14,657 nucleotides of DNA from a virus. Location of the stretch: the UHGV virus genome UHGV-0107399. One strand, 5' to 3'. Shown here one piece after another: positions 1,149-14,429 of this stretch; the stretch's first letter is position 1; every line of letters starts with the position of its first letter. The translations under genes were made by a program, and so were the position numbers. Under the pieces are notes generated by a model that was not told the DNA's origin, did no database searches, and saw only the letters and a list, made by a program, of their open reading frames with translations.

Positions 1149-1444
1149 ACCCCTGCCCTCTCCCAAACCATCAATACTCGCTTCATCGCAGCGCTGTTGC
1201 GGCACTCCTGAAATATTCCGTTGGTGCAGCTGCGCGCGGTGCCATCCTGCTCTTCCGGCGTCGCCAGGCGATAAGTCACCGTTCGCCAGACCTTGCTCAC
1301 GCGGACAATCTTGCGGGACCGTTCCAGATCGATAGCGTTCTTCGTGATGCAGTTGATCGTCATACCGCATTCTGTGGCCACATCCTTCGCGGTGAAGGTC
1401 CGGTGCGTTTCGAGATAACGCAGAATTGCCTGTTTGCCTTTCAT
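1145..1444 (-). CDS. Hypothetical protein (99 aa), possible helix-turn-helix DNA-binding protein
   Basis: In-frame part of ORF 1145..1546(-), starting at the Met of MKGKQAILRYLETHRTFTAKDVATECGMT. Its start codon overlaps the stop of the DnaB-like gene at 1444-1446. The HTH call is a weak pattern guess. Confidence 0.5.
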   Translation of the reverse strand: MKGKQAILRYLETHRTFTAKDVATECGMTINCITKNAIDLERSRKIVRVSKVWRTVTYRLATPEEQDGTARSCTNGIFQECRNSAAMKRVLMVWERAGV

Positions 1445-2877
1445 CAGAAGCCCCCTTTCTTTTTCGGCTGCTGCTCGCGCCCGCGGCGTTCTGCGGCGGC
1501 GGCCTGCTGGTCTGTGTCGTAAATTGCCCCGTTGATCTGATTGCAATAAACCGTTCCGGTACTGCCGTGGCGGTTGAGTCGCAGGATTAACTCGGTTTCT
1601 CCTGGCGGCACGCTGTCATCGAAAGCACCTTCCCGGTGGATGCCAACCCAGTAGTCGCAGTCCTGCTCAATCTGTCCTGTGTCGCGGGAATCGCTCGGCA
1701 ACGGGCGTTTATTCACTCGCTTCTCAAGTTCACGGTTTAGCTGAGTCAGCAGCACGACGACGCAGCCAAGCTCTTTGGCGAGGTTCTTCAACCCTTTGGT
1801 GATCATCCCGTAGGCCAGGTCATTACGGTCGGCTTTTTCGGCTGTCATCAGCGTCAGGTAGTCAACCAGGATCATGCCTACGCAGCCCTTCTCGCGTTTG
1901 ATTCGGCGGCTTTCGCTAACGATGTGCGCCAGTGACAGTCCCGGAGTGTCGTCGATGTACAGCATGTCGATTTCACTCAGCCGGCCAGCTGTAGCGATCG
2001 CCTTCTTAAAGTCTCCGTCGTAGTCGCCCTGGTACTGGTCATCGGCGTCATCCGTGGCGGGCATGTAAAAAATGCTCGGATTTACGCCGGACTTCTGACC
2101 AACCAGTTTTTCGAGGATCTGGTCGCTCGGCATTTCAAGGCTGAACATCAGCGCTGGCTTTTTCTCACGAACCGCGCAGTTGATCGCCATCTGCCCGTAT
2201 AGGGTTGTCTTGCCCATCTTTGGCCTTGCGCCAATCACGAACAGAGAGCCTTTAACCAGACCTTTCGGCGCCAGCAGTCGGTCGAGTGACGGGATTCCGG
2301 TACTCATTCCGCGCTGTTCGCCTGAAGGGTCAAATCGCTTCTCCAGATCTGCCACCCAGTCATCCATAACCTCGCCGAACGACCGCAAACCACGGCGACT
2401 TCCGGTTTTTGAATGGTCTGCGAGCTGGGTGAAAATACCCTGAATGGCCTCGTACTTCTGCGTGGCGCTCATGCCGTTACGGGAATACAGCAGCTCAGTA
2501 GCTTCGGTCAGACGGTTGATACCGTAGCGCTCCATTGCGGCTTCCCGGACTGATGCTGCGTATGCCACGATGTTCGCAGCGCTTGGAGTGTTCTTGGCGA
2601 TCTCCGCCAGGTAAGCAAAGCCACCTACCTGCTCCGCGAGCCCTTTGCCTTCAAGCGCGTCGAACAATGTCAGACCATCGACTGGCTTGTTGTCGCGGAA
2701 CATCTGGCGCATCTCGGCAAAGATCAGCTGGTGAGGTCGGCTGTAGAACGACTCAGGCTTGAGCATCGCCAGAACCTTCTGGACTCGCTCGCTGTTGTCA
2801 TCATCCAGCAGCAGGCCACCGATAACGCTCTGCTCTGCTTCGAGGTTTTGCGGTACAGCCATGAATTCAGCGGTCAT
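1444..2877 (-). CDS. Replicative DNA helicase, DnaB family (phage-encoded, P22 gp12-like)
   Basis: ORF 1444..2901(-). N-terminus PQNLEAEQSVIGGLLLD and Walker A GARPKMGKTTL are typical of DnaB-family helicases. Start chosen at ATG 2875-2877 (MTAEF...), preceded by GAGGGGG at good spacing; the track start at 2901 is a TTG. Confidence 0.9.
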   Translation of the reverse strand: MTAEFMAVPQNLEAEQSVIGGLLLDDDNSERVQKVLAMLKPESFYSRPHQLIFAEMRQMFRDNKPVDGLTLFDALEGKGLAEQVGGFAYLAEIAKNTPSAANIVAYAASVREAAMERYGINRLTEATELLYSRNGMSATQKYEAIQGIFTQLADHSKTGSRRGLRSFGEVMDDWVADLEKRFDPSGEQRGMSTGIPSLDRLLAPKGLVKGSLFVIGARPKMGKTTLYGQMAINCAVREKKPALMFSLEMPSDQILEKLVGQKSGVNPSIFYMPATDDADDQYQGDYDGDFKKAIATAGRLSEIDMLYIDDTPGLSLAHIVSESRRIKREKGCVGMILVDYLTLMTAEKADRNDLAYGMITKGLKNLAKELGCVVVLLTQLNRELEKRVNKRPLPSDSRDTGQIEQDCDYWVGIHREGAFDDSVPPGETELILRLNRHGSTGTVYCNQINGAIYDTDQQAAAAERRGREQQPKKKGGF

Positions 2878-3766
2878 CACGATCCCCCTCGCGCACTTCA
2901 ATGTAGAGCTTTTCGGTCAGGAACTTATCGAATTTCATGCGGCGCCAGGTCTTCCCGGATTTCTGGTCTGGTCGGTCTTCAAGCATCCATCGGCAGTTCT
3001 GAGCGATGTAGCGCAGATAACTTCTGAAACCGTCCATATCCATCGGCTTGCCGTCCAGGTTGCGGGCGATCTTGTTAGCCTTACCCCAGAAGGTGCGGAT
3101 CAGATTGCGTCGCTCATCAGTGAGGCATCTCCATCCCCGTGCTTCAGGCAGTTCGTCTTTCAGGCATTGCCATACTTCATCGCATGACAAACGAGACTTT
3201 TTCTCTTCAGCGGGTTTCTGGTCATTTGCGACATACTTACTACCGTTAGGTAGTAAGTTATTTAATATATTGTTATCTGTGGACACTGGCTGGACATCGG
3301 CTGGACACTCCACCTCCACAGGCATTGGTACGACTGCGTTTGGGCTGGACACCGGCTGGACATCGGCTGGACAAAAATTTGACTGATATTCGTCATATTT
3401 GACCACTTTTAGAACAGTAAAACGGTTGTTCGATTTGGTGGTGATCATGCCCAGATTCTGGAATTTACGGAGCAGTGATTTAACGCGATCAGCGGTCAAA
3501 CCCGTTTCCATTGCCAGCGTGTTTCGCCCGGTAATGAACTCTCCGCGTTCGCAGATCACATCGCCGACATCAGTCGATACCAGTGTCTGTTCGTGATTAG
3601 CACGCAGGAGCAGGTGAACCCATAAATGAGCCGCCTCAGCGTCCTTGTAGAACGGCACATCCATAATTTTACGGTGCAGCAAGGCAAACCCCTTACCGTC
3701 ATTCGTGCGCGGTTTCTGGAGCCTTCTGGCCTCTCTGGCTTCGGCTAAATTGGATACGTTACCCAC
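2867..3766 (-). CDS. Replication initiator, lambda O / P22 gp18-like (assigned by position and internal iterons)
   Basis: ORF 2867..3772(-). Start chosen at GTG 3764-3766, with AAGGAG 7 nt upstream; the track start is a TTG directly abutting the SD. The gene sits between the cII-like gene and the DnaB-like helicase, and its stop overlaps the helicase start. The middle of the gene holds phased 11-bp direct repeats that encode the CPADVQPVS peptide repeats. Confidence 0.6.
   Translation of the reverse strand: MGNVSNLAEAREARRLQKPRTNDGKGFALLHRKIMDVPFYKDAEAAHLWVHLLLRANHEQTLVSTDVGDVICERGEFITGRNTLAMETGLTADRVKSLLRKFQNLGMITTKSNNRFTVLKVVKYDEYQSNFCPADVQPVSSPNAVVPMPVEVECPADVQPVSTDNNILNNLLPNGSKYVANDQKPAEEKKSRLSCDEVWQCLKDELPEARGWRCLTDERRNLIRTFWGKANKIARNLDGKPMDMDGFRSYLRYIAQNCRWMLEDRPDQKSGKTWRRMKFDKFLTEKLYIEVREGDRDDR
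3277..3378. repeat. Six phased 11-bp direct repeats (TGGACA core) inside the O-like gene, followed by an AT-rich stretch; candidate origin iterons
   Basis: TGGACA starts at 3280, 3291, 3302, 3346, 3357 and 3368, all offset by multiples of 11 bp (two triplets 44 bp apart). An AT-rich segment follows at 3371-3420. In lambda the origin iterons lie inside gene O. Confidence 0.55.
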
Positions 3767-3905
3767 GGCCAATCTCCTTACGTTTCAGTTCTTCAAGAAT
3801 GGCGCGCATCTTCTCTGCCACAATCGGGTTAACCGAGCGGATGAAGCGATCGCGGGTTATGTTTTTATGTACAGCGGTATGGTAATAGCGTGGATTTTTT
3901 GCCAT
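3759..3905 (-). CDS. Small hypothetical protein (48 aa)
   Basis: Internal start of ORF 3759..3989(-): ATG 3903-3905 (MAKNPRYYHT...) preceded by AGGAGG. Its 3' end overlaps the O-like start. Function unknown. Confidence 0.4.
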   Translation of the reverse strand: MAKNPRYYHTAVHKNITRDRFIRSVNPIVAEKMRAILEELKRKEIGRG

Positions 3906-4234: not shown

Positions 4235-4468
4235 TTATGCCGCGGTATTTCGCGGCGAGGCAAAAACCAGGCTCTCTTTGAGCACCGGATCCTGGCGGTG
4301 AAATTTTTTTGTGGCATCTTCGATAGCCGATGCCATTTCTGGTGATGCGCGACGATTTCCGTAAGCGATCTGGTCCAGATAACCTGGCGTTGTGTTTGCC
4401 AGTTTTGCGAGCTGCGCCCATTCGTCTGTAGTGGCGCCCTTACGCCAGCGATGCAGTTCAGTACTCAT
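4235..4468 (-). CDS. Cro-like HTH regulator (77 aa)
   Basis: First gene of the minus-strand operon, divergent from the cI-like repressor across an operator-rich spacer. GGAGA lies 5 nt upstream of ATG 4466-4468. The HTH-like segment is TDEWAQLAKLANTTPGYLDQIAYG. Called by position and size, not by recognised sequence identity. Confidence 0.6.
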   Translation of the reverse strand: MSTELHRWRKGATTDEWAQLAKLANTTPGYLDQIAYGNRRASPEMASAIEDATKKFHRQDPVLKESLVFASPRNTAA

Positions 4469-4584
4469 TGGTGTCTCCGGTTGAGTCGTTTGATTTGGAG
4501 TTTAGCGTTATGCTAAATACTACGCAAGCAACATTTAGCAATTTGCACATTTATCATTTTGCTAAAAGCAGTAACAATGCAGGG
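4469..4584. promoter_or_regulatory. OR-like operator/promoter region between the divergent cro-like and cI-like genes
   Basis: A perfect palindrome TTTAGCGTTATGCTAAA (4501-4517), plus two degenerate copies of the same ATTTAGC-N5-GCTAAAT pattern at about 4533-4551 and 4549-4567. Three sites between divergent repressor genes is the lambda OR1-3 arrangement. Confidence 0.6.
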
Positions 4585-5262
4585 ATGGAAAATAAAGAAA
4601 TCAGAAAAGCCAACCTGGAAGCGCTGTATGAGAAGCGCCAGCACGAGTCTGGAATGACAAAGGCGCAGTTCGCCGAGCTCATCGAGACAAGTCCGGCTGC
4701 GCTTAGCCAGCTGCTGGGACCAAACCCTCATCGCAATATCGGCGATAAGATGGCTCGCAAAATTGAAAGTGCGCTTGATCTGCCTTTTGGTTGGATGGAT
4801 GTTTTACACACCAGTGAAGAACCTTCGAACGTTGCATTTCGAGGACTGAACGAGACAAAAGGAAGTTATCCTGTAATCAGCTGGGTAAGCGCGGGGCAAT
4901 GGATGGAAGCTGTAGAACCTTATCACCGAAGAGCGATAGATCGCTGGTATGACACGACTGTTGACTGCTCAGAAGATTCATTCTGGCTTGACGTTAAAGG
5001 GGATTCTATGACCTCCCCGGCCGGGCTGAGCATACCAGAGGGGGCAGCGATACTTGTTGATCCTGAAGTCGAACCGCGCAACGGGAAGCTGGTTGTCGCG
5101 AAGCTTGAAGGCGATAACGAAGCGACCTTTAAGAAGCTTGTAATCGATGCCGGCAGACGCTTCCTTAAGCCTCTTAACCCCGCATATCCAATGATAGAGG
5201 TTAACGGCAACTGCAAAATTATCGGCGTTGTGGTTGATGCCAAGATACTGAACATCCCATAA
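4585..5262 (+). CDS. cI: CI-like prophage repressor (N-terminal HTH, C-terminal LexA/S24-type autocleavage domain)
   Basis: The C-terminal half (WVSAGQWMEA...FWLDVKGDSMTSPAGLSIPEGAAILVDPEVEPRNGKLVVAKLEGDNEATFKKLVIDAGRRFLKPLNPAYPMIE) aligns by eye with the lambda CI C-terminus, including the Ser (GDSM) and Lys (FKKL) of the catalytic dyad. Start chosen at ATG 4585 (MENKEIRK...) by analogy with the lambda CI N-terminus; the track ORF begins at 4468, and 4510 is another candidate. Confidence 0.85.
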   Translation: MENKEIRKANLEALYEKRQHESGMTKAQFAELIETSPAALSQLLGPNPHRNIGDKMARKIESALDLPFGWMDVLHTSEEPSNVAFRGLNETKGSYPVISWVSAGQWMEAVEPYHRRAIDRWYDTTVDCSEDSFWLDVKGDSMTSPAGLSIPEGAAILVDPEVEPRNGKLVVAKLEGDNEATFKKLVIDAGRRFLKPLNPAYPMIEVNGNCKIIGVVVDAKILNIP

Positions 5263-5282
5263 CCTCACGCAAATCCCGCTCA

Positions 5283-5308
5283 AGCCCGCCATCGCGCGGG
5301 CTTTTTTT
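5283..5308 (+). terminator. Rho-independent terminator downstream of the cI-like gene
   Basis: AGCCCGC (5283-5289), 6-nt loop, GCGGGCT (5296-5302), then a T7 run to 5308. Confidence 0.7.
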
Positions 5309-5345
5309 CGCCCTAAATTCCTGCCCTGTAAATTTTTAATCGCTT

Positions 5346-5422
5346 ATTAATCAATGCGCTAAATAAAACCCACCAATAATTTAGCATTTTGCTATTGCGC
5401 ATAATTTAGCATCACGCTAAAT
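5346..5422. promoter_or_regulatory. OL-like operator cluster, likely with the early-left promoter
   Basis: Three sites of the same ATTTAGC-N5-GCTAAAT family seen at OR: 5346-5364 (degenerate left half), 5379-5397 (ATTTAGCattttGCTATTG) and 5404-5422 (ATTTAGCatcacGCTAAAT, perfect). A candidate -10 CATAAT lies at 5400-5405. The exact promoter was not resolved. Confidence 0.55.
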
Positions 5423-5839
5423 TTACCCCATCGAAACGAAACATCGACAGCTGAGCGAAGTTAGCCAGCGGCGGACAGCAAGTCGCCTGCTTTTTAACAA
5501 CATGCAGATTTACAGCGTCAATGACCTGTTAAGACCCCTACACGTAAACGTGCTGTATCACCGGGTGCGATCCGGTCGGTGAGAGAGTATCCCCGCGCGA
5601 GAGCGAGAACGGCGTGAGAACGGGCAACACTGGCAGGGAGTTGGCGCTGACCAATACAGGGAATGTTATGGGATGTGGTGAAGGGTTCATGGACGGGAAT
5701 ATGTCGCACGTAAAGCGGCGAGGCCCGAGGAGCTATTGCCGAAGATAAGTAGGCCGAATCGGGTCGAAATGGGTCTCCCACCTACCACATCGCCAAAGCA
5801 TTTCTCCCGCATCAGCGGGTAACGACAGAGGGTAAGGGG

Positions 5840-6136
5840 ATGATCGACGACATCAAGCGCATCGACTCAATGATAAATGCGCTTCGCAATATGAAACAGG
5901 ACATCAAGCGTCAGCAGAAACTAAGTGAAATAAACAGTTTAGACCTGTCGCCGAAGCAAGCTCAAAAGCGCAATGCCGATGCTGACTGGATTGCGATGGA
6001 ACAGATTAAGCGTCGGCATGAGCTGCACGCTCTGTCTGTTGAGCTTGGGTTCGCTGAGCGCCGGGAAAGTTATGCTCCATTTGAATTAACTGACGGGTGG
6101 CACCGATTCGACCACAAGCCGCGCGAACCTCAATAG
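5840..6136 (+). CDS. Hypothetical protein (98 aa), first ORF of the early-left operon
   Basis: ORF 5840..6136(+), MIDDIKRIDSMINALRNMKQDIKRQQKLSEINS... AGAGGG lies about 7 nt upstream and an intrinsic terminator follows directly. Not arginine-rich at the N-terminus, so not obviously N-like. Confidence 0.5.
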   Translation: MIDDIKRIDSMINALRNMKQDIKRQQKLSEINSLDLSPKQAQKRNADADWIAMEQIKRRHELHALSVELGFAERRESYAPFELTDGWHRFDHKPREPQ

Positions 6137-6158
6137 CCGCCTAACCAGCGGCTTTTTC
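6135..6158 (+). terminator. Rho-independent terminator immediately after the first early-left ORF
   Basis: AGCCGC (6135-6140), loop ctaacca, GCGGCT (6148-6153), then TTTTT. Confidence 0.65.
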
Positions 6159-6299
6159 ATACCTGGAGTCATTTACGAGTGGCTCAAGTTATGACAACCG
6201 GCGGCCATCCACCGCCCATTGAAACACTGAATAAATGCGTTGAAGTCTTGTATTAACCGTTCCGCTGGCCTGGCGACAAGGGCAAACGAGGGGATTGAG

Positions 6300-6569
6300 A
6301 TGAAAGGTAATACGAAGAAAACAGGCATGATCGGCTTTGGAGCATGCTGGGCACGTAAATTCTATTCACGCCAAAAGCCAATGCAACTCCCAAGTTCTCG
6401 ATCGAATGGCGGGAAAGGTTCAAACAGCCCTGAAGCAAAACACCATCGCCGCGCCCAGCAGAGATTCAACAAAACAGGCGGCATTCCTCGCGGCAAAGCC
6501 TACGTGAAAATGTACCGCCTGGGATATCGCAGCGAGAGCCGAAAAGACCTTATGCGAGCGACTCAATAG
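6300..6569 (+). CDS. Hypothetical small basic protein (89 aa)
   Basis: Internal start of ORF 6240..6569(+): ATG 6300 (MKGNTKKTGMIGF...) with GAGGGGA 5 nt upstream. Lys/Arg-rich (HHRRAQQRFNK, YRLGYRSESRK). Its 3' end overlaps the convergent minus-strand gene by 20 bp. Whether it is truly coding is uncertain. Confidence 0.4.
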   Translation: MKGNTKKTGMIGFGACWARKFYSRQKPMQLPSSRSNGGKGSNSPEAKHHRRAQQRFNKTGGIPRGKAYVKMYRLGYRSESRKDLMRATQ

Positions 6570-6843
6570 GTTTCAGGGCTAACGGCTGATCCTGTTCCGG
6601 CACATATCGCTCTTTGACAATAACAGCCAGTTTTTGCTTAGCCGCAGGGTCGTCATTAGATGTGACGAGTCTGTTTATCTGTTCTGAAAGTGAAAACCAT
6701 CCGTGAGTATCGCAAACGTAAACCACTGATGGAACTTCACGAATAGTTGGTGGTTTTACTTTGATGTTAACCAACTGATTTGTCTGGTTAAAAGACAAAG
6801 AATCTTCACCACAAATAGGACATGGCTTAGTTACTGATTTCAT
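6550..6843 (-). CDS. Hypothetical protein (97 aa) with N-terminal zinc-ribbon-like motif; moron-like gene on the opposite strand inside the early-left operon
   Basis: ORF 6550..6843(-), MKSVTKPCPICGEDSLSF...VVYVCDTHGWF. The CPICGE ... C-x2-H spacing resembles a YgiT/MqsA-type zinc ribbon (pattern only). AAGGA lies 7 nt upstream of the ATG. Local GC content looks lower than in flanking genes. Confidence 0.55.
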   Translation of the reverse strand: MKSVTKPCPICGEDSLSFNQTNQLVNIKVKPPTIREVPSVVYVCDTHGWFSLSEQINRLVTSNDDPAAKQKLAVIVKERYVPEQDQPLALKPIESLA

Positions 6844-7022
6844 AGTTATTCCTTGCTGGCTGTGTGAGAACTACCAGCATACCACCGAGCCTGAAGTGGA
6901 TAAAAGACAGGCACATAAGAGTGGGTTTCGCGGTGGTGAACTGCAGAGTTAAAACGCTCAACTGTGAAGATCAGCACCACGGCACCACCAGCGAAGTTCA
7001 CTCAGCAATAGTGGAGAACATC

Positions 7023-7229
7023 ATGGTTCATCAGCACTACGGTACACAGACAGTAAACCGCGGCGCAGTTCAGCCGGGGATGCTCGTCAAACACAAGGAT
7101 TCAACCTGGACGGCATCAGCTAATGCTCGTGGTCGTTTGTATCTGCATCGCGGCGTTGAGATGACTTACACCAGGGATTTGCTGGTTGAAGTTTATCTGA
7201 ACGGTCTGGGGAATGGCCTCAGCCATTAA
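7023..7229 (+). CDS. Hypothetical small protein (68 aa)
   Basis: Internal start of ORF 6864..7229(+): ATG 7023 (MVHQHYGTQTVNRG...) with GGAGA 5 nt upstream. Sits in the slot where Rac-type prophages carry kil-type genes; this is positional inference only. Confidence 0.4.
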   Translation: MVHQHYGTQTVNRGAVQPGMLVKHKDSTWTASANARGRLYLHRGVEMTYTRDLLVEVYLNGLGNGLSH

Positions 7230-7262
7230 CGGAGAGTTGCCAAAACACTTTAAGGACAGGTG

Positions 7263-7421
7263 ATGAAAAAAGAATGTGGTTATTGCCACAAGCCTGTTGA
7301 AGAAGGCGCAGAAGTAAAGAGCACCTTGCTCTATCTCAACGGTTCGCAACTGGCACAGAAAGAAAAAGAATATTGCTCTAAGCAATGCGCTGAATACGAC
7401 CAGATGGCGCACGAAAGTTAA
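7263..7421 (+). CDS. Hypothetical small Cys-rich protein (52 aa), putative zinc-binding
   Basis: Hand-translated as MKKECGYCHKPVEEGAEVKSTLLYLNGSQLAQKEKEYCSKQCAEYDQMAHES, stop TAA 7419-7421. AAGGA lies upstream. CxxC ... CxxxC motif. Below the 60-aa cutoff of the supplied ORF track. Confidence 0.45.
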   Translation: MKKECGYCHKPVEEGAEVKSTLLYLNGSQLAQKEKEYCSKQCAEYDQMAHES

Positions 7422-7506
7422 ATAGCAGTCCTGAAATATGAAATGAAAAATTCGCCATTAATTTGGCGCGGCTTCTTACACCCTTAATTTAACAACTGGA
7501 GATTTT

Positions 7507-7794
7507 ATGGAAATCGTAAAAATCGAAATGAACCTGAAAGCAGTGAATAAAGAAGTGGCTGTATTCAACTGCGAGAAGAAAGTATCAGGCGTTATTCACT
7601 CAACTACAAACGGTGAAACAACAGTCATTCTCGACGGTGGCTATGTGCTTGGCAAGTTTGATTGCCCGCACTGCGCCATTGAGGAGATCAGCTTGCTGGT
7701 ACTCAAAATCAGCGATAGCGATTACGCCGGCTGTGGAACCTACCGTACATACAAGCAAGATTTTATGAATGAGGCGATCGTAGCCGTCAGTTAA
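7507..7794 (+). CDS. Hypothetical protein (95 aa)
   Basis: ORF 7507..7794(+), with TGGAGA upstream. Contains CPHC and CG motifs. Followed by a GC hairpin at 7801-7816. Confidence 0.5.
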   Translation: MEIVKIEMNLKAVNKEVAVFNCEKKVSGVIHSTTNGETTVILDGGYVLGKFDCPHCAIEEISLLVLKISDSDYAGCGTYRTYKQDFMNEAIVAVS

Positions 7795-7934
7795 GCGAAA
7801 GCCCACCGAAGTGGGCCCGCCATGTCCGGCCTCACCGACCAAAGTTACACCGGAAACAACATTAAAACCAAAGTTAACCCAATGGGCGCTATCAATGGTC
7901 CGGGGATTCTAACACCCAAAAATGAGGATCTCAC

Positions 7935-10844
7935 ATGGAATTTTTCCATCTGATAAAAGCCAGTCAGAAGTCTGGCAAGAAAGATGCAGTGATTTGGTTC
8001 ACTGCGAAAAGTGTAGCGCGCGCCAATCTCCAACTCGATGTGGCACTGGAAGAAGCCGGAATTGAAGAAACTGGCCGCGGTAAAGATTATGCCAAACCAA
8101 TCCGCACCGATTTCCCGGTATATGACGACCTGCCGGAAGAAGGCGCAGTGGATTACACCTGGTGCGAACGCTACGAACTGCAGAACGATGACCGCACCTG
8201 GCTGCCAAAAGTCACAGCTGAAAACTCTGACGAGAAAACGGCTCAGACCGTTGATAGTCACATAACTACTGAGTCAACGCTGTCAGAAACCGCTGGCATC
8301 ACGCTGGACGAACACGACGACGACTCAACCCTCTACCCGGTAGTGCAGATGCCGTTTCGTAAGCAACTGCTTTCCCAGTTCACCGCCGACGAACTGCGCC
8401 ACCACGTAACCCACGAAGAGTACGAAGCTATCGGCGCGCTGGAGATGGACACTGATAACAGTTACGTCCAGAACTTGCTGTTAGCTGCTGAGAACTGCCC
8501 GGAAGTGAAGGGTTACGACACCAAAGACCTGTGGCGCTACACCGATGCCATTCGCAAAGTGTTCAGCCAGGACAAGCGTCACGAACTCGCGCTGGTACTC
8601 CGTTTCACCAGAATGTGGGCGGCGACTGATTACATTGACCGTGGCATCCTGGCGCGTGAATGGGCCGCCGGTAATCGCATCAGTAGTGTGCAGCGTACTG
8701 ATTCCGGCACTAATGCCGACGGCGGTTACGTCACTGACCGTGGACCTGACGCACACCACACACTGGACACTCTCGATTTAGAGATTGCGTGTGCCCTTCT
8801 GCCTATGGACTTCAACCACTTCGAGATCCCGGGCAGCATTCTTCGTCGCGCTAAAGAAATCGTGACCAAAAAAGAAGAACCATGGAAATCATGGAGCAAC
8901 ATCCTGCGCAATCAGCCAGGCGTTCTGGGTGTTAACCGCACGGCTATTTTTAACCTGGTACGTATCGCACCGGAAAATATTCATTTAACCCCTGTCGCTC
9001 ACCTGGAATTTGTTAACCAGACCATGACTGCTGAATTCAACTCTGCGGTTGAGTTATTGCCGTTGCATGAAGCTGAAGTAGCAACTCAGGAAATTCACCA
9101 ACCTGAAAGTAAGGAGTCTCCGCGCAAATCCTTCTGCACTCACGAAGAGAACCTGCAACGCGTGCGTGAAGAAGGAGCACGCCGCCGCGCAGAGGAAGCG
9201 GCAGCACAACCGCAGAAAGTCGAACAAGAACTGGTTAAAAATGTCGGCAACGGAATATTCGACGTTACGGCTTTGCTGCAGAACTCAGCAACTCATGGCA
9301 CGAAAAAGGCTACGGAGACCACCAGCAATGTGCAGGTTCAAGAAACTGTCAGTGATGAAAAACAAGCTGGTGATGAAGTACAGCCAGGCGAAAGCAGTCT
9401 GGAGTCTGGTGAAGAGTCAGATACCAGCCAGAAGGACGATGTAGACCAGAATACGGATTCTGTCGCCAAAAATAGCGATTCTGTAAGCCAAACCGAACCA
9501 GTTGCAGCACAAACCGAGCCAGAAGCGCAATCTGACGAACCAGCTGTTGTTTATCCCGCTTATTTCGAGCCAGGCCGCTATGAAGGGCTGCCAAACGAGG
9601 TTTACCACGCCGCCAACGGCATCAGCTCAACCCAGGTGAAAGATGCGCGCGTTTCGCTGATGTACTTCAATGCGCGCCACGTAGAGAAAACCATCGTCAA
9701 AGAGCGCTCAGCGGTGCTGGACATGGGCAACTTGGTGCATGCGCTGGCGTTGCAGCCTGAACTACTGGACGCAGAATTCAGCGTTGAACCGGTGATCCCT
9801 GAAGGCGCATTCACAACGGCCGCGACCCTGCGCGCCTTTATCGATGAGCACAATGCCAGCCTGCCGGCGCTGCTGTCTGCCGACGACATCAAGGTGTTAC
9901 TGGAAGAGTACAACGCCACCCTGCCGCCGCAGGTTCCGCTTGGCGCTAACCTGGAAGAAACGGCACAGAACTATATGGCGCTGCCAGCTGACTTCCAGCG
10001 TATTGATGGTGACCAGAAGCAGACGGCGACGGCAATGAAGGCATGCATTAAAGAGTACAACGCCACCCTGCCGCCGCCGGTTAAAACCAGCGGCAGCCGT
10101 GACGCGCTGCTGGAGCAGTTGGCAATCATCAACCCTGACCTTGTGGCTCAGGAAGCACAGAAACCGGCACCACTGAAAGTGTCCGGTACCAAATCAGACC
10201 TGATTCAGGCCGTGAAGTCTGTTAATCCGGAAGCCGTATTCGCCGACGAGTTGTTGGATGCGTGGCGCGAGAATCCGCATGGGAAAGTGCTGGTCACCCG
10301 CCAGCAGCTGAGCACCGCACTGGCCATTCAGAAAGCCCTGCTAAAGCACCCAACCGCCGGGATGCTGCTTCAGCATCCGAGCCGCGCTGTTGAGGTGAGC
10401 TATTTTGGCTTTGACGACGAAACCGGACTTGAAGTCCGCGTGCGTCCTGACCTTGAGATCGACTTGGACGGGGTACGCATCGGTGCCGACCTTAAAACCA
10501 TCAGCATGTGGAACATTAAGCAGGAAGGTCTGCGCGCCAAACTGCACCGGGAAATCATCGACCGTGACTATCACCTGAGCGCCGCCATGTATTGCGAGAC
10601 CGCGGCACTTGACCAGTTCTTCTGGATTTTCGTCAACAAAGACGAGAACTACCACTGGATCGCCATCATCGAGGCATCCGCTGAACTGCTAGAGCTGGGC
10701 ATGCTCGAGTACCGCAAGGCGATGCGCGCTATCGCTACCGGCTTTGACACTGGCGAATGGCCAGCGCCGATCACCGCTGATTACACCGACGAACTGAACG
10801 ACTTCGACCTGCGCCGCCTTGAAGCGCTGCGTACTCAGGCATAA
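7935..10844 (+). CDS. RecE-like exonuclease (exodeoxyribonuclease VIII-like), 969 aa, with C-terminal PD-(D/E)xK nuclease domain
   Basis: Long ORF directly upstream of the annealase gene. The C-terminal region carries a PD ... D-x-K arrangement (VRPDLEIDLDGVRIGADLKTISMW) typical of the RecE/lambda-Exo/YqaJ nuclease fold. GAGGA lies 6 nt before the ATG. The acidic middle region contains EYNATLPP repeats. Confidence 0.75.
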   Translation: MEFFHLIKASQKSGKKDAVIWFTAKSVARANLQLDVALEEAGIEETGRGKDYAKPIRTDFPVYDDLPEEGAVDYTWCERYELQNDDRTWLPKVTAENSDEKTAQTVDSHITTESTLSETAGITLDEHDDDSTLYPVVQMPFRKQLLSQFTADELRHHVTHEEYEAIGALEMDTDNSYVQNLLLAAENCPEVKGYDTKDLWRYTDAIRKVFSQDKRHELALVLRFTRMWAATDYIDRGILAREWAAGNRISSVQRTDSGTNADGGYVTDRGPDAHHTLDTLDLEIACALLPMDFNHFEIPGSILRRAKEIVTKKEEPWKSWSNILRNQPGVLGVNRTAIFNLVRIAPENIHLTPVAHLEFVNQTMTAEFNSAVELLPLHEAEVATQEIHQPESKESPRKSFCTHEENLQRVREEGARRRAEEAAAQPQKVEQELVKNVGNGIFDVTALLQNSATHGTKKATETTSNVQVQETVSDEKQAGDEVQPGESSLESGEESDTSQKDDVDQNTDSVAKNSDSVSQTEPVAAQTEPEAQSDEPAVVYPAYFEPGRYEGLPNEVYHAANGISSTQVKDARVSLMYFNARHVEKTIVKERSAVLDMGNLVHALALQPELLDAEFSVEPVIPEGAFTTAATLRAFIDEHNASLPALLSADDIKVLLEEYNATLPPQVPLGANLEETAQNYMALPADFQRIDGDQKQTATAMKACIKEYNATLPPPVKTSGSRDALLEQLAIINPDLVAQEAQKPAPLKVSGTKSDLIQAVKSVNPEAVFADELLDAWRENPHGKVLVTRQQLSTALAIQKALLKHPTAGMLLQHPSRAVEVSYFGFDDETGLEVRVRPDLEIDLDGVRIGADLKTISMWNIKQEGLRAKLHREIIDRDYHLSAAMYCETAALDQFFWIFVNKDENYHWIAIIEASAELLELGMLEYRKAMRAIATGFDTGEWPAPITADYTDELNDFDLRRLEALRTQA

Positions 10845-10849
10845 GGGGA

Positions 10850-11968
10850 ATGATGATGGAAAACACGAATATCGTAACCGCTGAACAGCAGACTCCAAAC
10901 ACGATCTCAGCCAGCAATGCCATTTTCAACGTGCAGGCTTTAACCCAGCTTCAGTCTGTCGCCGGGTTGATGGCACAGGCAGCCGTAACGGTGCCTGAGC
11001 ACCTCCGCGGCAATCCGGCAGACTGCATGGCCATCATCATGCAGGCGATGCAGTGGGGTATGAACCCTTACGCCGTGGCGCAAAAGACGCACCTGGTTAA
11101 CGGTGTCCTGGGATACGAAGCGCAACTGGTTAATGCGGTGATCTCCAGCTCAAACGCCATCGTTGGCCGCTTTCACTATGAGTACGAGGGCGACTGGTCG
11201 AAATGTGCCAGCAGCCGCGAGATAACCGTTAAAAAGCCTGCGAAAGGTGGCGGGACGTACGACAAGAAAGAAATGGTACGCGGTTGGGAAAGTGCTGATG
11301 AACAAGGACTGTCGGTACGGGTAGGTGCCGTTATTCGCGGTGAAAGTGATATCACCTGGGGAGAGCCTGTTTTCCTCTCCAGCGTAATCACACGTAATTC
11401 TCCACTTTGGGTATCAAACCCGAAACAGCAGATCGCTTATCTGGCACTCAAATACTGGGCGCGCCTGTATTGCCCTGCAGTTGTTCTTGGTGTGTACACC
11501 CCTGATGAGATTGAACAGCGCACAGAAAAAGAGATCAACCCAACGCCGCAACGCGTTAGCCTGGCTGATATCTCAGGTGACACCGTCACAACCACGCAAA
11601 GCGCACAGGAATCGTCGGTAAATGTCGACGCTCTTGCCGATGATTTCCGCGAGCGCATCGAGGCAGCACAGGATGTTGATAGCGCCAAAGCACTGCGTGC
11701 TGATATCGAAAGCGCGAAGGCCACGCTCGGATCTGCCCTGTTCACCGAGCTGAAGAATAAGGCAGTGAAGCGCTACTACCTGGTTGATTCACGTAACAAG
11801 GTTGAAGCCGCGATAAACTCCCTGCCGTCTCCGGATGATCCGGATGCAGCTGAACGGTTTGGGGAAGTTGAGCGAGTTCTTGCAACGGCAAAACGTCATC
11901 TGGGCGACGAACTGCACGATCAGTTCAGCATCACCTTGGCGGATATGAAACCGGAATACGTGGCCTAA
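10850..11968 (+). CDS. ssDNA-annealing recombinase, lambda Bet (Red-beta)-like
   Basis: GNPADCMAIIMQAMQWGMNPY resembles lambda Bet GDASDAQFIALLIVANQYGLNPW (by eye). Sits immediately downstream of the exonuclease gene. Three tandem ATGs at 10850, 10853 and 10856; SD spacing favours 10856. Confidence 0.65.
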   Translation: MMMENTNIVTAEQQTPNTISASNAIFNVQALTQLQSVAGLMAQAAVTVPEHLRGNPADCMAIIMQAMQWGMNPYAVAQKTHLVNGVLGYEAQLVNAVISSSNAIVGRFHYEYEGDWSKCASSREITVKKPAKGGGTYDKKEMVRGWESADEQGLSVRVGAVIRGESDITWGEPVFLSSVITRNSPLWVSNPKQQIAYLALKYWARLYCPAVVLGVYTPDEIEQRTEKEINPTPQRVSLADISGDTVTTTQSAQESSVNVDALADDFRERIEAAQDVDSAKALRADIESAKATLGSALFTELKNKAVKRYYLVDSRNKVEAAINSLPSPDDPDAAERFGEVERVLATAKRHLGDELHDQFSITLADMKPEYVA

Positions 11969-12814: not shown

Positions 12815-13012
12815 ATGGATGATATTTTGGTAACGTCAGACCTGACCAGTCGCTACAAAATTTCACGCAAAACCCTTTGGTCATGGCAAAGTGCAGACAC
12901 AATGCCTCGGGGCTTCGTATGCCCGTTCCCACCCCCTGACTGGCCCGGCAACCCTAACCGCTGGCGCTCTGAGTCAATCAAAGAGTGGGAGGATAAAAAG
13001 AAGATAAATTAA
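12815..13012 (+). CDS. Excisionase / AlpA-family small DNA-binding protein (65 aa)
   Basis: In-frame part of ORF 12770..13012(+). Starts at ATG 12815 ([24 protein letters not shown]...), with GGAGA 5 nt upstream. Small basic HTH-like protein adjacent to the integrase gene, as expected for Xis/AlpA-type recombination directionality factors. Confidence 0.6.
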
Positions 13013-14202
13013 CTGAAGGGCTCTCCGATGATCTCTTCAAGATGGCTCTGCCAAACGCGGAGCCAGTGTTTCTGATCATCGATATAGTCATGAAGGTTGT
13101 AATGCGCCATAACCCCCACCATCTGATGCCCGAGCAGCTTTTCAATTACGTGCGGCGGGCAACCTAACTCAGAGAGATTTGTGGCTATCGTCCGCCTCAT
13201 ATCATGAAGCGACCACTCTGCCATACCTGTTCCATTCCAAATAGAACGGGCGTAATTGGATGCCACAGGTGAATGAACGGGCGAATCTTTGATCCCGCCA
13301 TCAATTTTACGTTGTGAAGTCACCAGGTGATTGGTGTTTATTTTCTTGAGGTGATTTCTGACCAGGTTAACGGCGGCGTCTGAGAGTCCCCTTCTAATAT
13401 GTACCCGAGTTTTATAACTGCCCGCAGGCACGACCCACTCATTATCATCCAATCGAAACCATGATCTCTCACTAAGTCGAATCTCAGCCGTACGGCATCC
13501 GGTAAGCATAATAAATTTCACCAGGAAAACGGACTCTATCGACATATGGCTTTTCAACCACTGATAGATTTTGCGCAGATCGTCATCGTCCATCCTGCGA
13601 GTTCTCTTTTTAGGCTTTTGCCCGACATCAGATGGCAGTAATCCCTCGAGTGGGTTTGAGGCGATCACACTTCTGTTAACGCAGAACCTAAACGCCCGTT
13701 TGCACAGCGAAAGCATGTAATGAGCCATCACCCTGCTTTCTATAGAATCGAAGACGTTGATCCAGTGCATTTTCGCTGTGTTATCGACTTTGACATTCTT
13801 CATCGGTTCGGCGATATGTTTCTCAAACACCTGGCGATAGTAATCGACTTTAACTAGCCCGTTAGCGATACAGTGCCTTTCAATCCAGTAATTGAACGCT
13901 TCGGCAACGGACATCGCTTCCTGTCGGGTCTGCTTATCCAGCTTCACCTGCTCTCGCGGATCCAGTCCCTCAGTTAACCAGTTTCTGAATTGTTGGCGAC
14001 GCTCTCTTGCCTGGGTGATACTCATTGCAGGATAATCACCAACATTGAGTTTTACCGCTTTACCGGCCCAGCGATACCGATAGAAAAATGATATTTTTCC
14101 GGCCTGGCTGATTCTGGCGTTGAGCCCGTGCGAATCAGAAATAATCTCGATATCATCTCTTTTCTTGCCGAGCGCCTTCCTGAGCTTTGTGTCGGTGATC
14201 AT
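13009..14202 (-). CDS. int: Tyrosine site-specific integrase, P4-like family
   Basis: ORF 13009..14259(-). N-terminal arm-binding-like region (ITDTKLRKA...[37 protein letters not shown]...GLDPREQ) resembles P4/CP4-57-type integrases. C-terminal catalytic signature includes HDMRRT and the HxxGxxxxxxY-type ending [22 protein letters not shown]. Start chosen at ATG 14200-14202 (MITDTKL); 14217 is an alternative, and the track start at 14259 is a GTG. Confidence 0.9.
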
Positions 14203-14206
14203 TGAA

Positions 14207-14249
14207 TGGGTACACATTTTTGTTTTTGGGTACACAAAAGTGTACACAA
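14207..14249. promoter_or_regulatory. Direct repeats (TGGGTACACA x2) plus palindrome GTGTACAC at the 5' end of int; candidate regulator or arm-type binding sites
   Basis: TGGGTACACA at 14207-14216 and 14227-14236; GTGTACAC (self-complementary) at 14240-14247. They lie immediately upstream of, or overlapping, the chosen int start. Confidence 0.4.
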
Positions 14250-14429
14250 AGTTGCCCACTCAAAGCTACACGCAATGTAACACTAGTTCGCAGAGTGTTA
14301 TGGTTTACATCCTTGAAAGCCTGCTGGATAAGGGTTTAGCGTAACAGAACGTTTTTACGCGGAATTGTTCGTAATATGCCAAATGACAATTTAAGAAAGT
14401 GTTCTGAATAGAGATTCAATATTTAAGGG

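Follow-up and report, generated by a model that had tools for sequence, protein, structure and literature searches.

A convergent, overlapping pair of orphan genes at the N/sieB position of a Rac/Gifsy-type lambdoid prophage

In lambdoid prophages the genes for exclusion and defence are kept at a small number of fixed sites, of which the junction between N and sieB is among the oldest known, and its logic is poorly understood. In lambda N and sieB are convergent neighbours. In the Rac prophage of Escherichia coli K-12 the genes run in the order racR, ydaG, ydaF, sieB (on the opposite strand), kilS, kilR, ydaE, racC, recE and recT, with ydaF and sieB convergent and overlapping by 4 base pairs (bp) at their 3' ends. 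Here we describe 14,657 nucleotides (nt) of viral DNA, UHGV-0107399 (hereafter the window, meaning the whole of this stretch), in which the N/sieB junction has a different occupant, namely two orphan protein families that always occur together. The pair, called bas89 and Zn97, occupies this junction with two unrelated proteins. Its elements, as taken from the map of open reading frames (ORFs) unless otherwise indicated, are:

6300–6569, plus strand: bas89, 89 amino acids (aa), ATG start, very basic and predicted to be disordered
6550–6843, minus strand: Zn97, 97 aa, zinc-ribbon-like (C8, C11, C44, H47); the C-terminal part has two helices and a conserved tail ending in IESL
6550–6569, both strands: 20-bp 3' overlap of the pair, encoding the ends PIESLA-stop (Zn97) and RATQ-stop (bas89)
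6286–7013, both strands: the cassette, 728 bp, a clean indel relative to the prophage of E. coli UPEC85 (blastn)

A gene of the prophage here runs against the early-left operon at the N/sieB junction, and the cassette which carries the pair is rare and narrowly distributed.

Both frames and their 20-bp overlap had been proposed in an earlier sequence-only reading of this DNA, and the ORF map confirms them; a TTG at 6240 would serve as an alternative start for bas89, giving 109 aa. In the near-identical (99.9%) prophage of E. coli MSB1_9D, RefSeq calls both ORFs hypothetical proteins. Across 14 distinct cassettes the two frames contain no stops and no indels, and the median pairwise ratio of nonsynonymous to synonymous substitution rates (dN/dS) comes to 0.13 for each gene outside the overlap; the remaining five frames contain 1–10 stops, with ratios of 0.2–2.4. 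Judged by this comparison both genes are real and under purifying selection.

Wherever the pair was looked for its two members were found together. Searches with Zn97 led to 22 protein clusters and those with bas89 to 32, or to 45 with a profile including distant members; all of these clusters are unnamed and all are from Enterobacterales, the pair being carried by prophages of Escherichia, Klebsiella, Citrobacter, Kosakonia, Atlantibacter and Pantoea. All of approximately 30 distinct loci which have either gene hold the partner as well, convergent and overlapping. Full-length Zn97 relatives are accompanied by bas89 in 14 of 14 viral contigs, 2 of 2 genome contigs and several assemblies, and bas89 is faced by a convergent Zn gene in each of the 25 viral contigs recovered. 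The 22 distinct pairs compared all overlap by exactly 20 bp, 97-aa and 95-aa types of Zn protein alike; the two most distantly related pairs overlap by 6 bp and 56 bp. When 1.84 billion representative proteins were searched with a profile, five matches came up; apart from one repeat protein, all are members of the same small family. Three further distant Zn relatives from the profile search (approximately 35–41% identity) include one of the 95-aa type known beside bas89, and the two most distant (35–37% identity) each face an overlapping gene whose product starts with MKGNTK and carries a GG(I/V)(P/C)RG(K/R) motif. This linkage persists while the repressors, the adjoining cargo (HipA-like, DUF6932, BstA, YafO) and kil vary between loci. 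Judged by this distribution the two genes form a single accessory unit of Rac/Gifsy-type lambdoid prophages, old and strictly linked; they are not two unrelated genes that were inserted recently.

In one viral contig (L051 6001–6540) both genes of the pair appear to be frameshifted, and the entire unit may therefore be decaying together there. Of a different nature is the interval just 3' of the repressor, which in related prophages holds changing cargo: a DUF6932 gene with a 305-aa gene, a HipA-like pair, a BstA_C defence protein, a YafO toxin pair and an MqsA-like zinc-finger protein (L003 8908–10409; L006 9049–10703; L058 6878–7798; L052 1119–2107; L040, a 177-aa ORF approximately 0.8–1.3 kb upstream of bas89). 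In these phages it is chiefly this repressor-adjacent interval that seems to take up variable cargo.

Evidence that the pair is accessory comes from UPEC85. Blastn aligns window positions 5793–6285 with positions 5848–6338 of the UPEC85 locus and 7014–7600 with 6339–6925, so that the two near-identical flanks are contiguous in UPEC85, where phi80 N is followed directly by kil and bas89 is missing. In other relatives the slot is taken by an Nmad5-family gene (strain W619) or by three small unknown genes (phage HK225). Among 5,426 complete E. coli genomes two have the whole cassette; a tblastn search with Zn97 against 50,697 deposited phage records gave no match. The slot itself is variable in close relatives, and the pair is therefore accessory and has no housekeeping role.

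The partners diverge out of step. The 97-aa (CxxC...CxxH) and 95-aa (CxxC...CxxD) types of Zn protein are only 33–42% identical, whereas their bas89 partners are 63–100% identical, so that Zn diverges much the faster. Faster turnover of one partner is common in proteins in conflict with other phages, and the fast divergence of Zn would therefore point to a conflict of this kind.

Zn97 carries a zinc motif composed of CPIC (C8 and C11) and C44-x2-H47, as had been noticed in the sequence; the whole family has C8, C11 and C44 without exception, and the 95-aa subtype has Asp in place of H47. AlphaFold2 gives it a confident fold (predicted local distance difference test score [pLDDT] 87.1, predicted template modelling score 0.75): a four-stranded sheet with both metal half-sites, helices at 54–62 and 66–79, and a tail, the IESL end of which is conserved even among the most distant relatives. 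The protein is mildly acidic. Its gene is lower in GC (41.8%) than its neighbours at approximately 50%, again as first read (bas89 50.7%, N 49.8%, kil 51.7%, entire window 51.8%). Zn97 belongs to PHROG 31519, of unknown function, with no other PHROG match, and fold and family searches (Pfam, NCBIfam, PHROGs, PADLOC) returned no significant match, the zinc-knuckle scores falling below threshold. The weak fold matches are repeatedly to polymerase-binding Tudor-like domains. Since neither member of the pair belongs to a known family, the description of them as non-SieB and uncharacterised still stands; sequence-profile searches of the PDB with both families gave nothing useful, and a full-text literature search turned up nothing on the pair.

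The region upstream of Zn97, all on the minus strand, contains:

6854–6850: Shine-Dalgarno sequence AAGGA, 6 nt before the ATG
6844–6913: near-invariant region of approximately 70 nt, recognised by its conservation
6884–6876: extended -10, TGgTATGCT (TG 6884–6883, TATGCT 6881–6876), read by eye
6904–6899: weak -35-like TTTATC
6912–6889: inverted repeat GCCTG-N14-CAGGC

The gene accordingly has its own ribosome-binding site, as had been suggested. The upstream region is approximately 93–100% conserved where the coding DNA is 66–82% identical, and it is kept by most loci of the 95-aa type as well; we infer that it is a promoter with a possible protein-binding site. In two loci of the 95-aa type (L038 and L040) it is swapped for unrelated sequence which has an inverted repeat of its own. 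Folded as plus-strand RNA the conserved region shows no unusual stability (z = -0.98). Rfam has no match within 5200–7600, and the terminator scanner finds only weak candidates inside the cassette, at 6650–6668 (plus strand) and 6460–6447 (minus strand).

The basic character attributed to the small ORF is borne out: over its relatives bas89 has an isoelectric point of 10.3–11.5 and a net charge of +12 to +19 in 89 residues. Its AlphaFold2 model has a mean pLDDT of 54.6, which is consistent with disorder. It falls in PHROG 29236, of unknown function; Pfam, NCBIfam, PADLOC and PDB sequences gave no match, and the profile search extended with distant members brought no named relatives. It is a protein of the type that would bind nucleic acid or a large partner. 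The invariant residues of the pair are MKGNTKK and GGIPRGK in bas89, and GWF..SE together with the IESL tail in Zn97.

The position of the pair has to be read against the rest of the window, which, on the ORF map and family scans (Pfam, PHROGs, NCBIfam), is the immunity and early-left region of a Rac/Gifsy-type lambdoid prophage. Where no other source is given the assignments below come from the same map and scans:

1444–2901, minus strand: DnaB-type helicase
2867–3772, minus strand: O-like replication gene
4235–4468, minus strand: cro-like gene
4468–5262, plus strand: LexA/S24-type repressor
5423–6285, plus strand: phi80-type block (pL -10, nutL, N gene, tL1A; phi80 annotation), adjoining the pair upstream
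5840–6136, plus strand: phi80 N gene, 98 aa (phi80 annotation)
6135–6157, plus strand: terminator tL1A (phi80 annotation; the terminator scanner agrees)
6255–6299, plus strand: bas89 leader and ribosome-binding region with a hairpin-capable element, CGCTGGCCTGGCG, at 6263–6275 (conservation)
7023–7229, plus strand: kil, 68 aa, FtsZ inhibitor family (PHROG 294, NCBIfam NF008465, RefSeq of relatives), the next early-left gene after the pair
7260–7421, plus strand: ydaE (NCBIfam NF041288, RefSeq of relatives)
7507–7794, plus strand: 95-aa gene (PHROG 2434, function unknown)
7935–10844, plus strand: recE
10850–11968, plus strand: recT
13009–14259, minus strand: integrase

The block at 5423–6285 is 99.1% identical to phage phi80, and because it lies on the plus strand, with pL, nutL, N and tL1A in this order, the plus strand is that of the early-left (pL) operon. 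The window repressor differs from that of phi80; the phi80 block is thus joined to a non-phi80 repressor and operators, giving a hybrid immunity region with its breakpoint within the promoter. Zn97 had been described as the only minus-strand gene between repressor and integrase, which holds for intact coding genes according to RefSeq in MSB1_9D, whose immunity region additionally holds one minus-strand pseudogene. Three further observations concern genes to the right of the pair. A 121-aa ORF at 6864–7229 (plus strand) over-extends kil, the Kil family matching residues 48–120 only and RefSeq giving 68 aa. The 95-aa ORF is intact in the window; at this place RefSeq has a frameshifted "DNA breaking-rejoining protein" pseudogene in relatives. 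Lastly, there is a match to the isrB Hfq-binding small RNA family (Rfam RF01386; 38.2 bits, gathering score 35) at 7796–7893 on the minus strand, that is, between the 95-aa gene and recE and opposite to the early-left operon.

In locus L033 the repressor-cro operator sequence recurs twice, approximately 95–135 nt upstream of the bas89 ATG and beside a TTGACG -35, and operator sharing of the same kind is seen in L038, L048 and L050. None of these four loci has a gene between the operator region and bas89; bas89 is there the first gene of the repressor-controlled early-left operon, in the place of lambda N. In most relatives bas89 is the promoter-proximal early-left gene; in the window the phi80 N block is placed ahead of it. 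Being first in a repressed pL operon, bas89 should be made on induction or infection only. The sequence-only reading had called the pair cargo, and this needs dividing: the pair is accessory, but bas89, with its promoter-proximal place in most relatives, is no loose cargo.

The leader element at 6255–6299 is kept in nearly all bas89 loci, its part 6255–6285 being common to phi80 too. RNAalifold folds it into a hairpin with a 4-bp stem, in which only G-U-type variation and no compensatory changes were seen. No second, nutR-like copy was found; there is a single copy per locus and none in the rightward operon. In phi80 itself (L007, 4870–5079, plus strand) the part of the element shared with the window is directly followed by a 69-aa ORF that lacks annotation; it is preceded by a good ribosome-binding site, and its product has two hydrophobic stretches. 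The phi80 record annotates only the rho-dependent terminator tL1B there.

As to function, we tentatively favour the explanation that Zn97 is an exclusion- or defence-type factor expressed in the lysogen, the activity of which is tied to bas89. Zn97 would be made in the lysogen while pL is repressed. Upon induction strong transcription from pL would run head-on through the Zn97 gene and its promoter, presumably shutting Zn97 down as bas89 appears. Either the prophage's own bas89 would neutralise Zn97 when the prophage goes lytic, as a form of self-immunity, or Zn97 might act on the bas89-type early protein of incoming relatives. The dN/dS ratios, the strict linkage, the position of bas89 first after pL and the physical character of both proteins argue for this explanation, as do the promoter-like element of Zn97, the precedent of the Rac layout, the accessory status of the pair and the independent divergence of its members.

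Several points weigh against it. The Zn types are swapped against similar bas89 proteins, and any contact between the two would thus have to use conserved residues only. PADLOC-DB v2 contains no match for bas89 or Zn97 at E≤1. A strict promoter scanner finds no sigma-70 site in 5200–7600, and the promoter call for Zn97 rests on conservation together with an extended -10 read by eye. For lambda N and sieB, themselves convergent neighbours, no direct functional link is established here, and linkage by itself is therefore no proof of joint function. Finally, SieB is a membrane protein to which the soluble Zn97 bears no relation, and nothing on mechanism can therefore be read from the position.

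A more specific form of this explanation, which we consider rather unlikely as it stands, is that of an undescribed two-component prophage system in which Zn97 blocks the early development of incoming related phages via or together with their bas89-type protein, with self-immunity built in. In such a system Zn97 may act at RNA polymerase, since its weak fold matches are to polymerase-binding domains, and the prophage's own bas89 and the head-on transcription from pL would switch the block off on induction.

Two other explanations survive to some extent. By the first, which is unlikely but not far-fetched, the pair would be a safety catch resembling a toxin and antitoxin: bas89 would be a harmful early protein like Kil, any leak of which is neutralised in the lysogen by constitutively made Zn97 and its antisense transcript until pL overwhelms Zn97 on induction. 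The strict linkage and fixed 3' overlap would suit this, and so would the convergent transcripts, which must pair over at least 20 nt, and the contrast between an extremely basic, disordered bas89 and a mildly acidic Zn97 with a promoter-like element of its own. The genes of type II systems, however, are autoregulated and run in the same direction, a layout which differs from the present one, and Zn subtypes are swapped against similar bas89 proteins. Membership of the pair in a type II toxin-antitoxin family was rejected, given the convergent layout and the lack of any toxin or antitoxin family match in Pfam, NCBIfam and PADLOC.

By the second, to which we would give the same low standing, two independent functions merely share a layout: bas89 would be an N-like early regulator, possibly an antiterminator, and Zn97 an unrelated lysogenic-conversion gene set head-on to it, like sieB beside N or ydaF. 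In its typical position bas89 is the first gene after pL, it is basic and disordered and close to phi80 N (98 aa) in size, and its leader holds the conserved hairpin-capable element; UPEC85 has phi80 N without bas89, and Rac shows the same convergent layout. As with N-type genes, then, we have a promoter-proximal early-left gene for a basic, disordered protein. Yet phi80 N and bas89 occur together in the window and in L013, other relatives have unrelated first genes, and the linkage outlasts very deep divergence in a strongly mosaic region. Nut-like sites for bas89 in both early operons were not seen, the leader element being single in each locus with no rightward-operon copy, although unrecognised sites are possible. 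As a relative of N, bas89 was rejected: hhalign against phi80 N gave 0.1% probability, and there is no Pfam or PHROG match to N, nor one to any Pfam family.

It is improbable that Zn97 is a Lar/RalR-like zinc-ribbon protein, serving in restriction alleviation or as a small toxin with DNase activity, and kept in check by the antisense early transcript in the manner of the Rac ralR/ralA type I system. Zn97 matches the Lar models weakly (Pfam PF14354, E = 0.03; TIGR03655, E = 0.023), an hhalign comparison with Rac RalR reaches 79% probability, over only 18 columns, those of the KPCPxCG knuckle, and two BFVD "restriction alleviation" proteins are among its weak fold matches. But the similarity is confined to this first zinc knuckle; approximately 32 residues separate it from the second half-site (CxxH or CxxD), and nothing in the family corresponds to the C-terminal helices and tail. 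Membership in the family was rejected at 15 bits, far below the cut-offs of 28.6 and 39.6 bits.

Very improbable indeed is a truncated antitoxin of the MqsA/YgiT type, of which the sequence-only reading had been reminded. The likeness lies in a CxxC...Cxx(H/C) spacing seen by eye; none of the methods used detected a relationship, no homologous N-terminal domain was found, and the partner gene is convergent, its product basic, disordered and without family match. What did stand is that Zn97 lacks the C-terminal helix-turn-helix of those antitoxins, as AlphaFold2 shows two helices with an extended tail and no helix-turn-helix family matched. Least probable of all is that one of the ORFs is a chance antisense frame, for although overlapping antisense ORFs are often artefacts and bas89 has a low-confidence structure, both frames are open at every locus and both genes are kept down to 33–41% protein identity, and the low dN/dS in the non-overlapping parts, with stops in the other frames across the 14 cassettes, refutes it.

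Should the pair provide exclusion with self-immunity, or guard a toxic early protein, it would be a new small system and a compact model for control by convergent transcription. Should the two genes be independent neighbours, it would be an ordinary mosaic cassette.

Comparison with the known systems may be summarised as follows. With MqsRA Zn97 has in common a small N-terminal motif for zinc binding, and this only in the spacing of its Cys residues; there is no detected homology and no helix-turn-helix, the genes are convergent and not operonic, and the partner is not an MqsR-like RNase. Lar/RalR (PF14354, TIGR03655) are likewise small prophage proteins of a Rac-type early region with an N-terminal KPCPxCG zinc knuckle, from which Zn97 differs in its second half-site and its extra helical C-terminal part. 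The lambda-type N antiterminators resemble bas89 in being promoter-proximal in the early-left operon (in most relatives), approximately 90–100 aa in length, very basic and predicted to be disordered. Unlike them, bas89 has no clear arginine-rich motif and no paired nut-like sites, and it coexists with phi80 N in the window.

With regard to sieB, Pfam, PHROG and NCBIfam show no SieB homology of Zn97, which is a soluble 97-aa zinc-ribbon protein and not a membrane protein, and lacks any sequence relation to SieB; bas89 is unrelated to YdaF (DUF1391) and to N, and the partners here are never found apart. Nevertheless Zn97, like sieB, lies on the opposite strand, with the first early-left genes on one side and kil on the other. 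The sequence-only reading had put the pair in the sieB slot, and Rac of K-12, where ydaG-ydaF face sieB and kilR and ydaE follow, bears it out: in both the slot lies 3' of the repressor and 5' of kil-ydaE-recE-recT, and early-left genes meet an opposite-strand gene with the 3' ends overlapping, by 4 bp in Rac and by 20 bp here. In Rac and lambda, as in the present pair, one would expect the prophage to express the opposite-strand gene.

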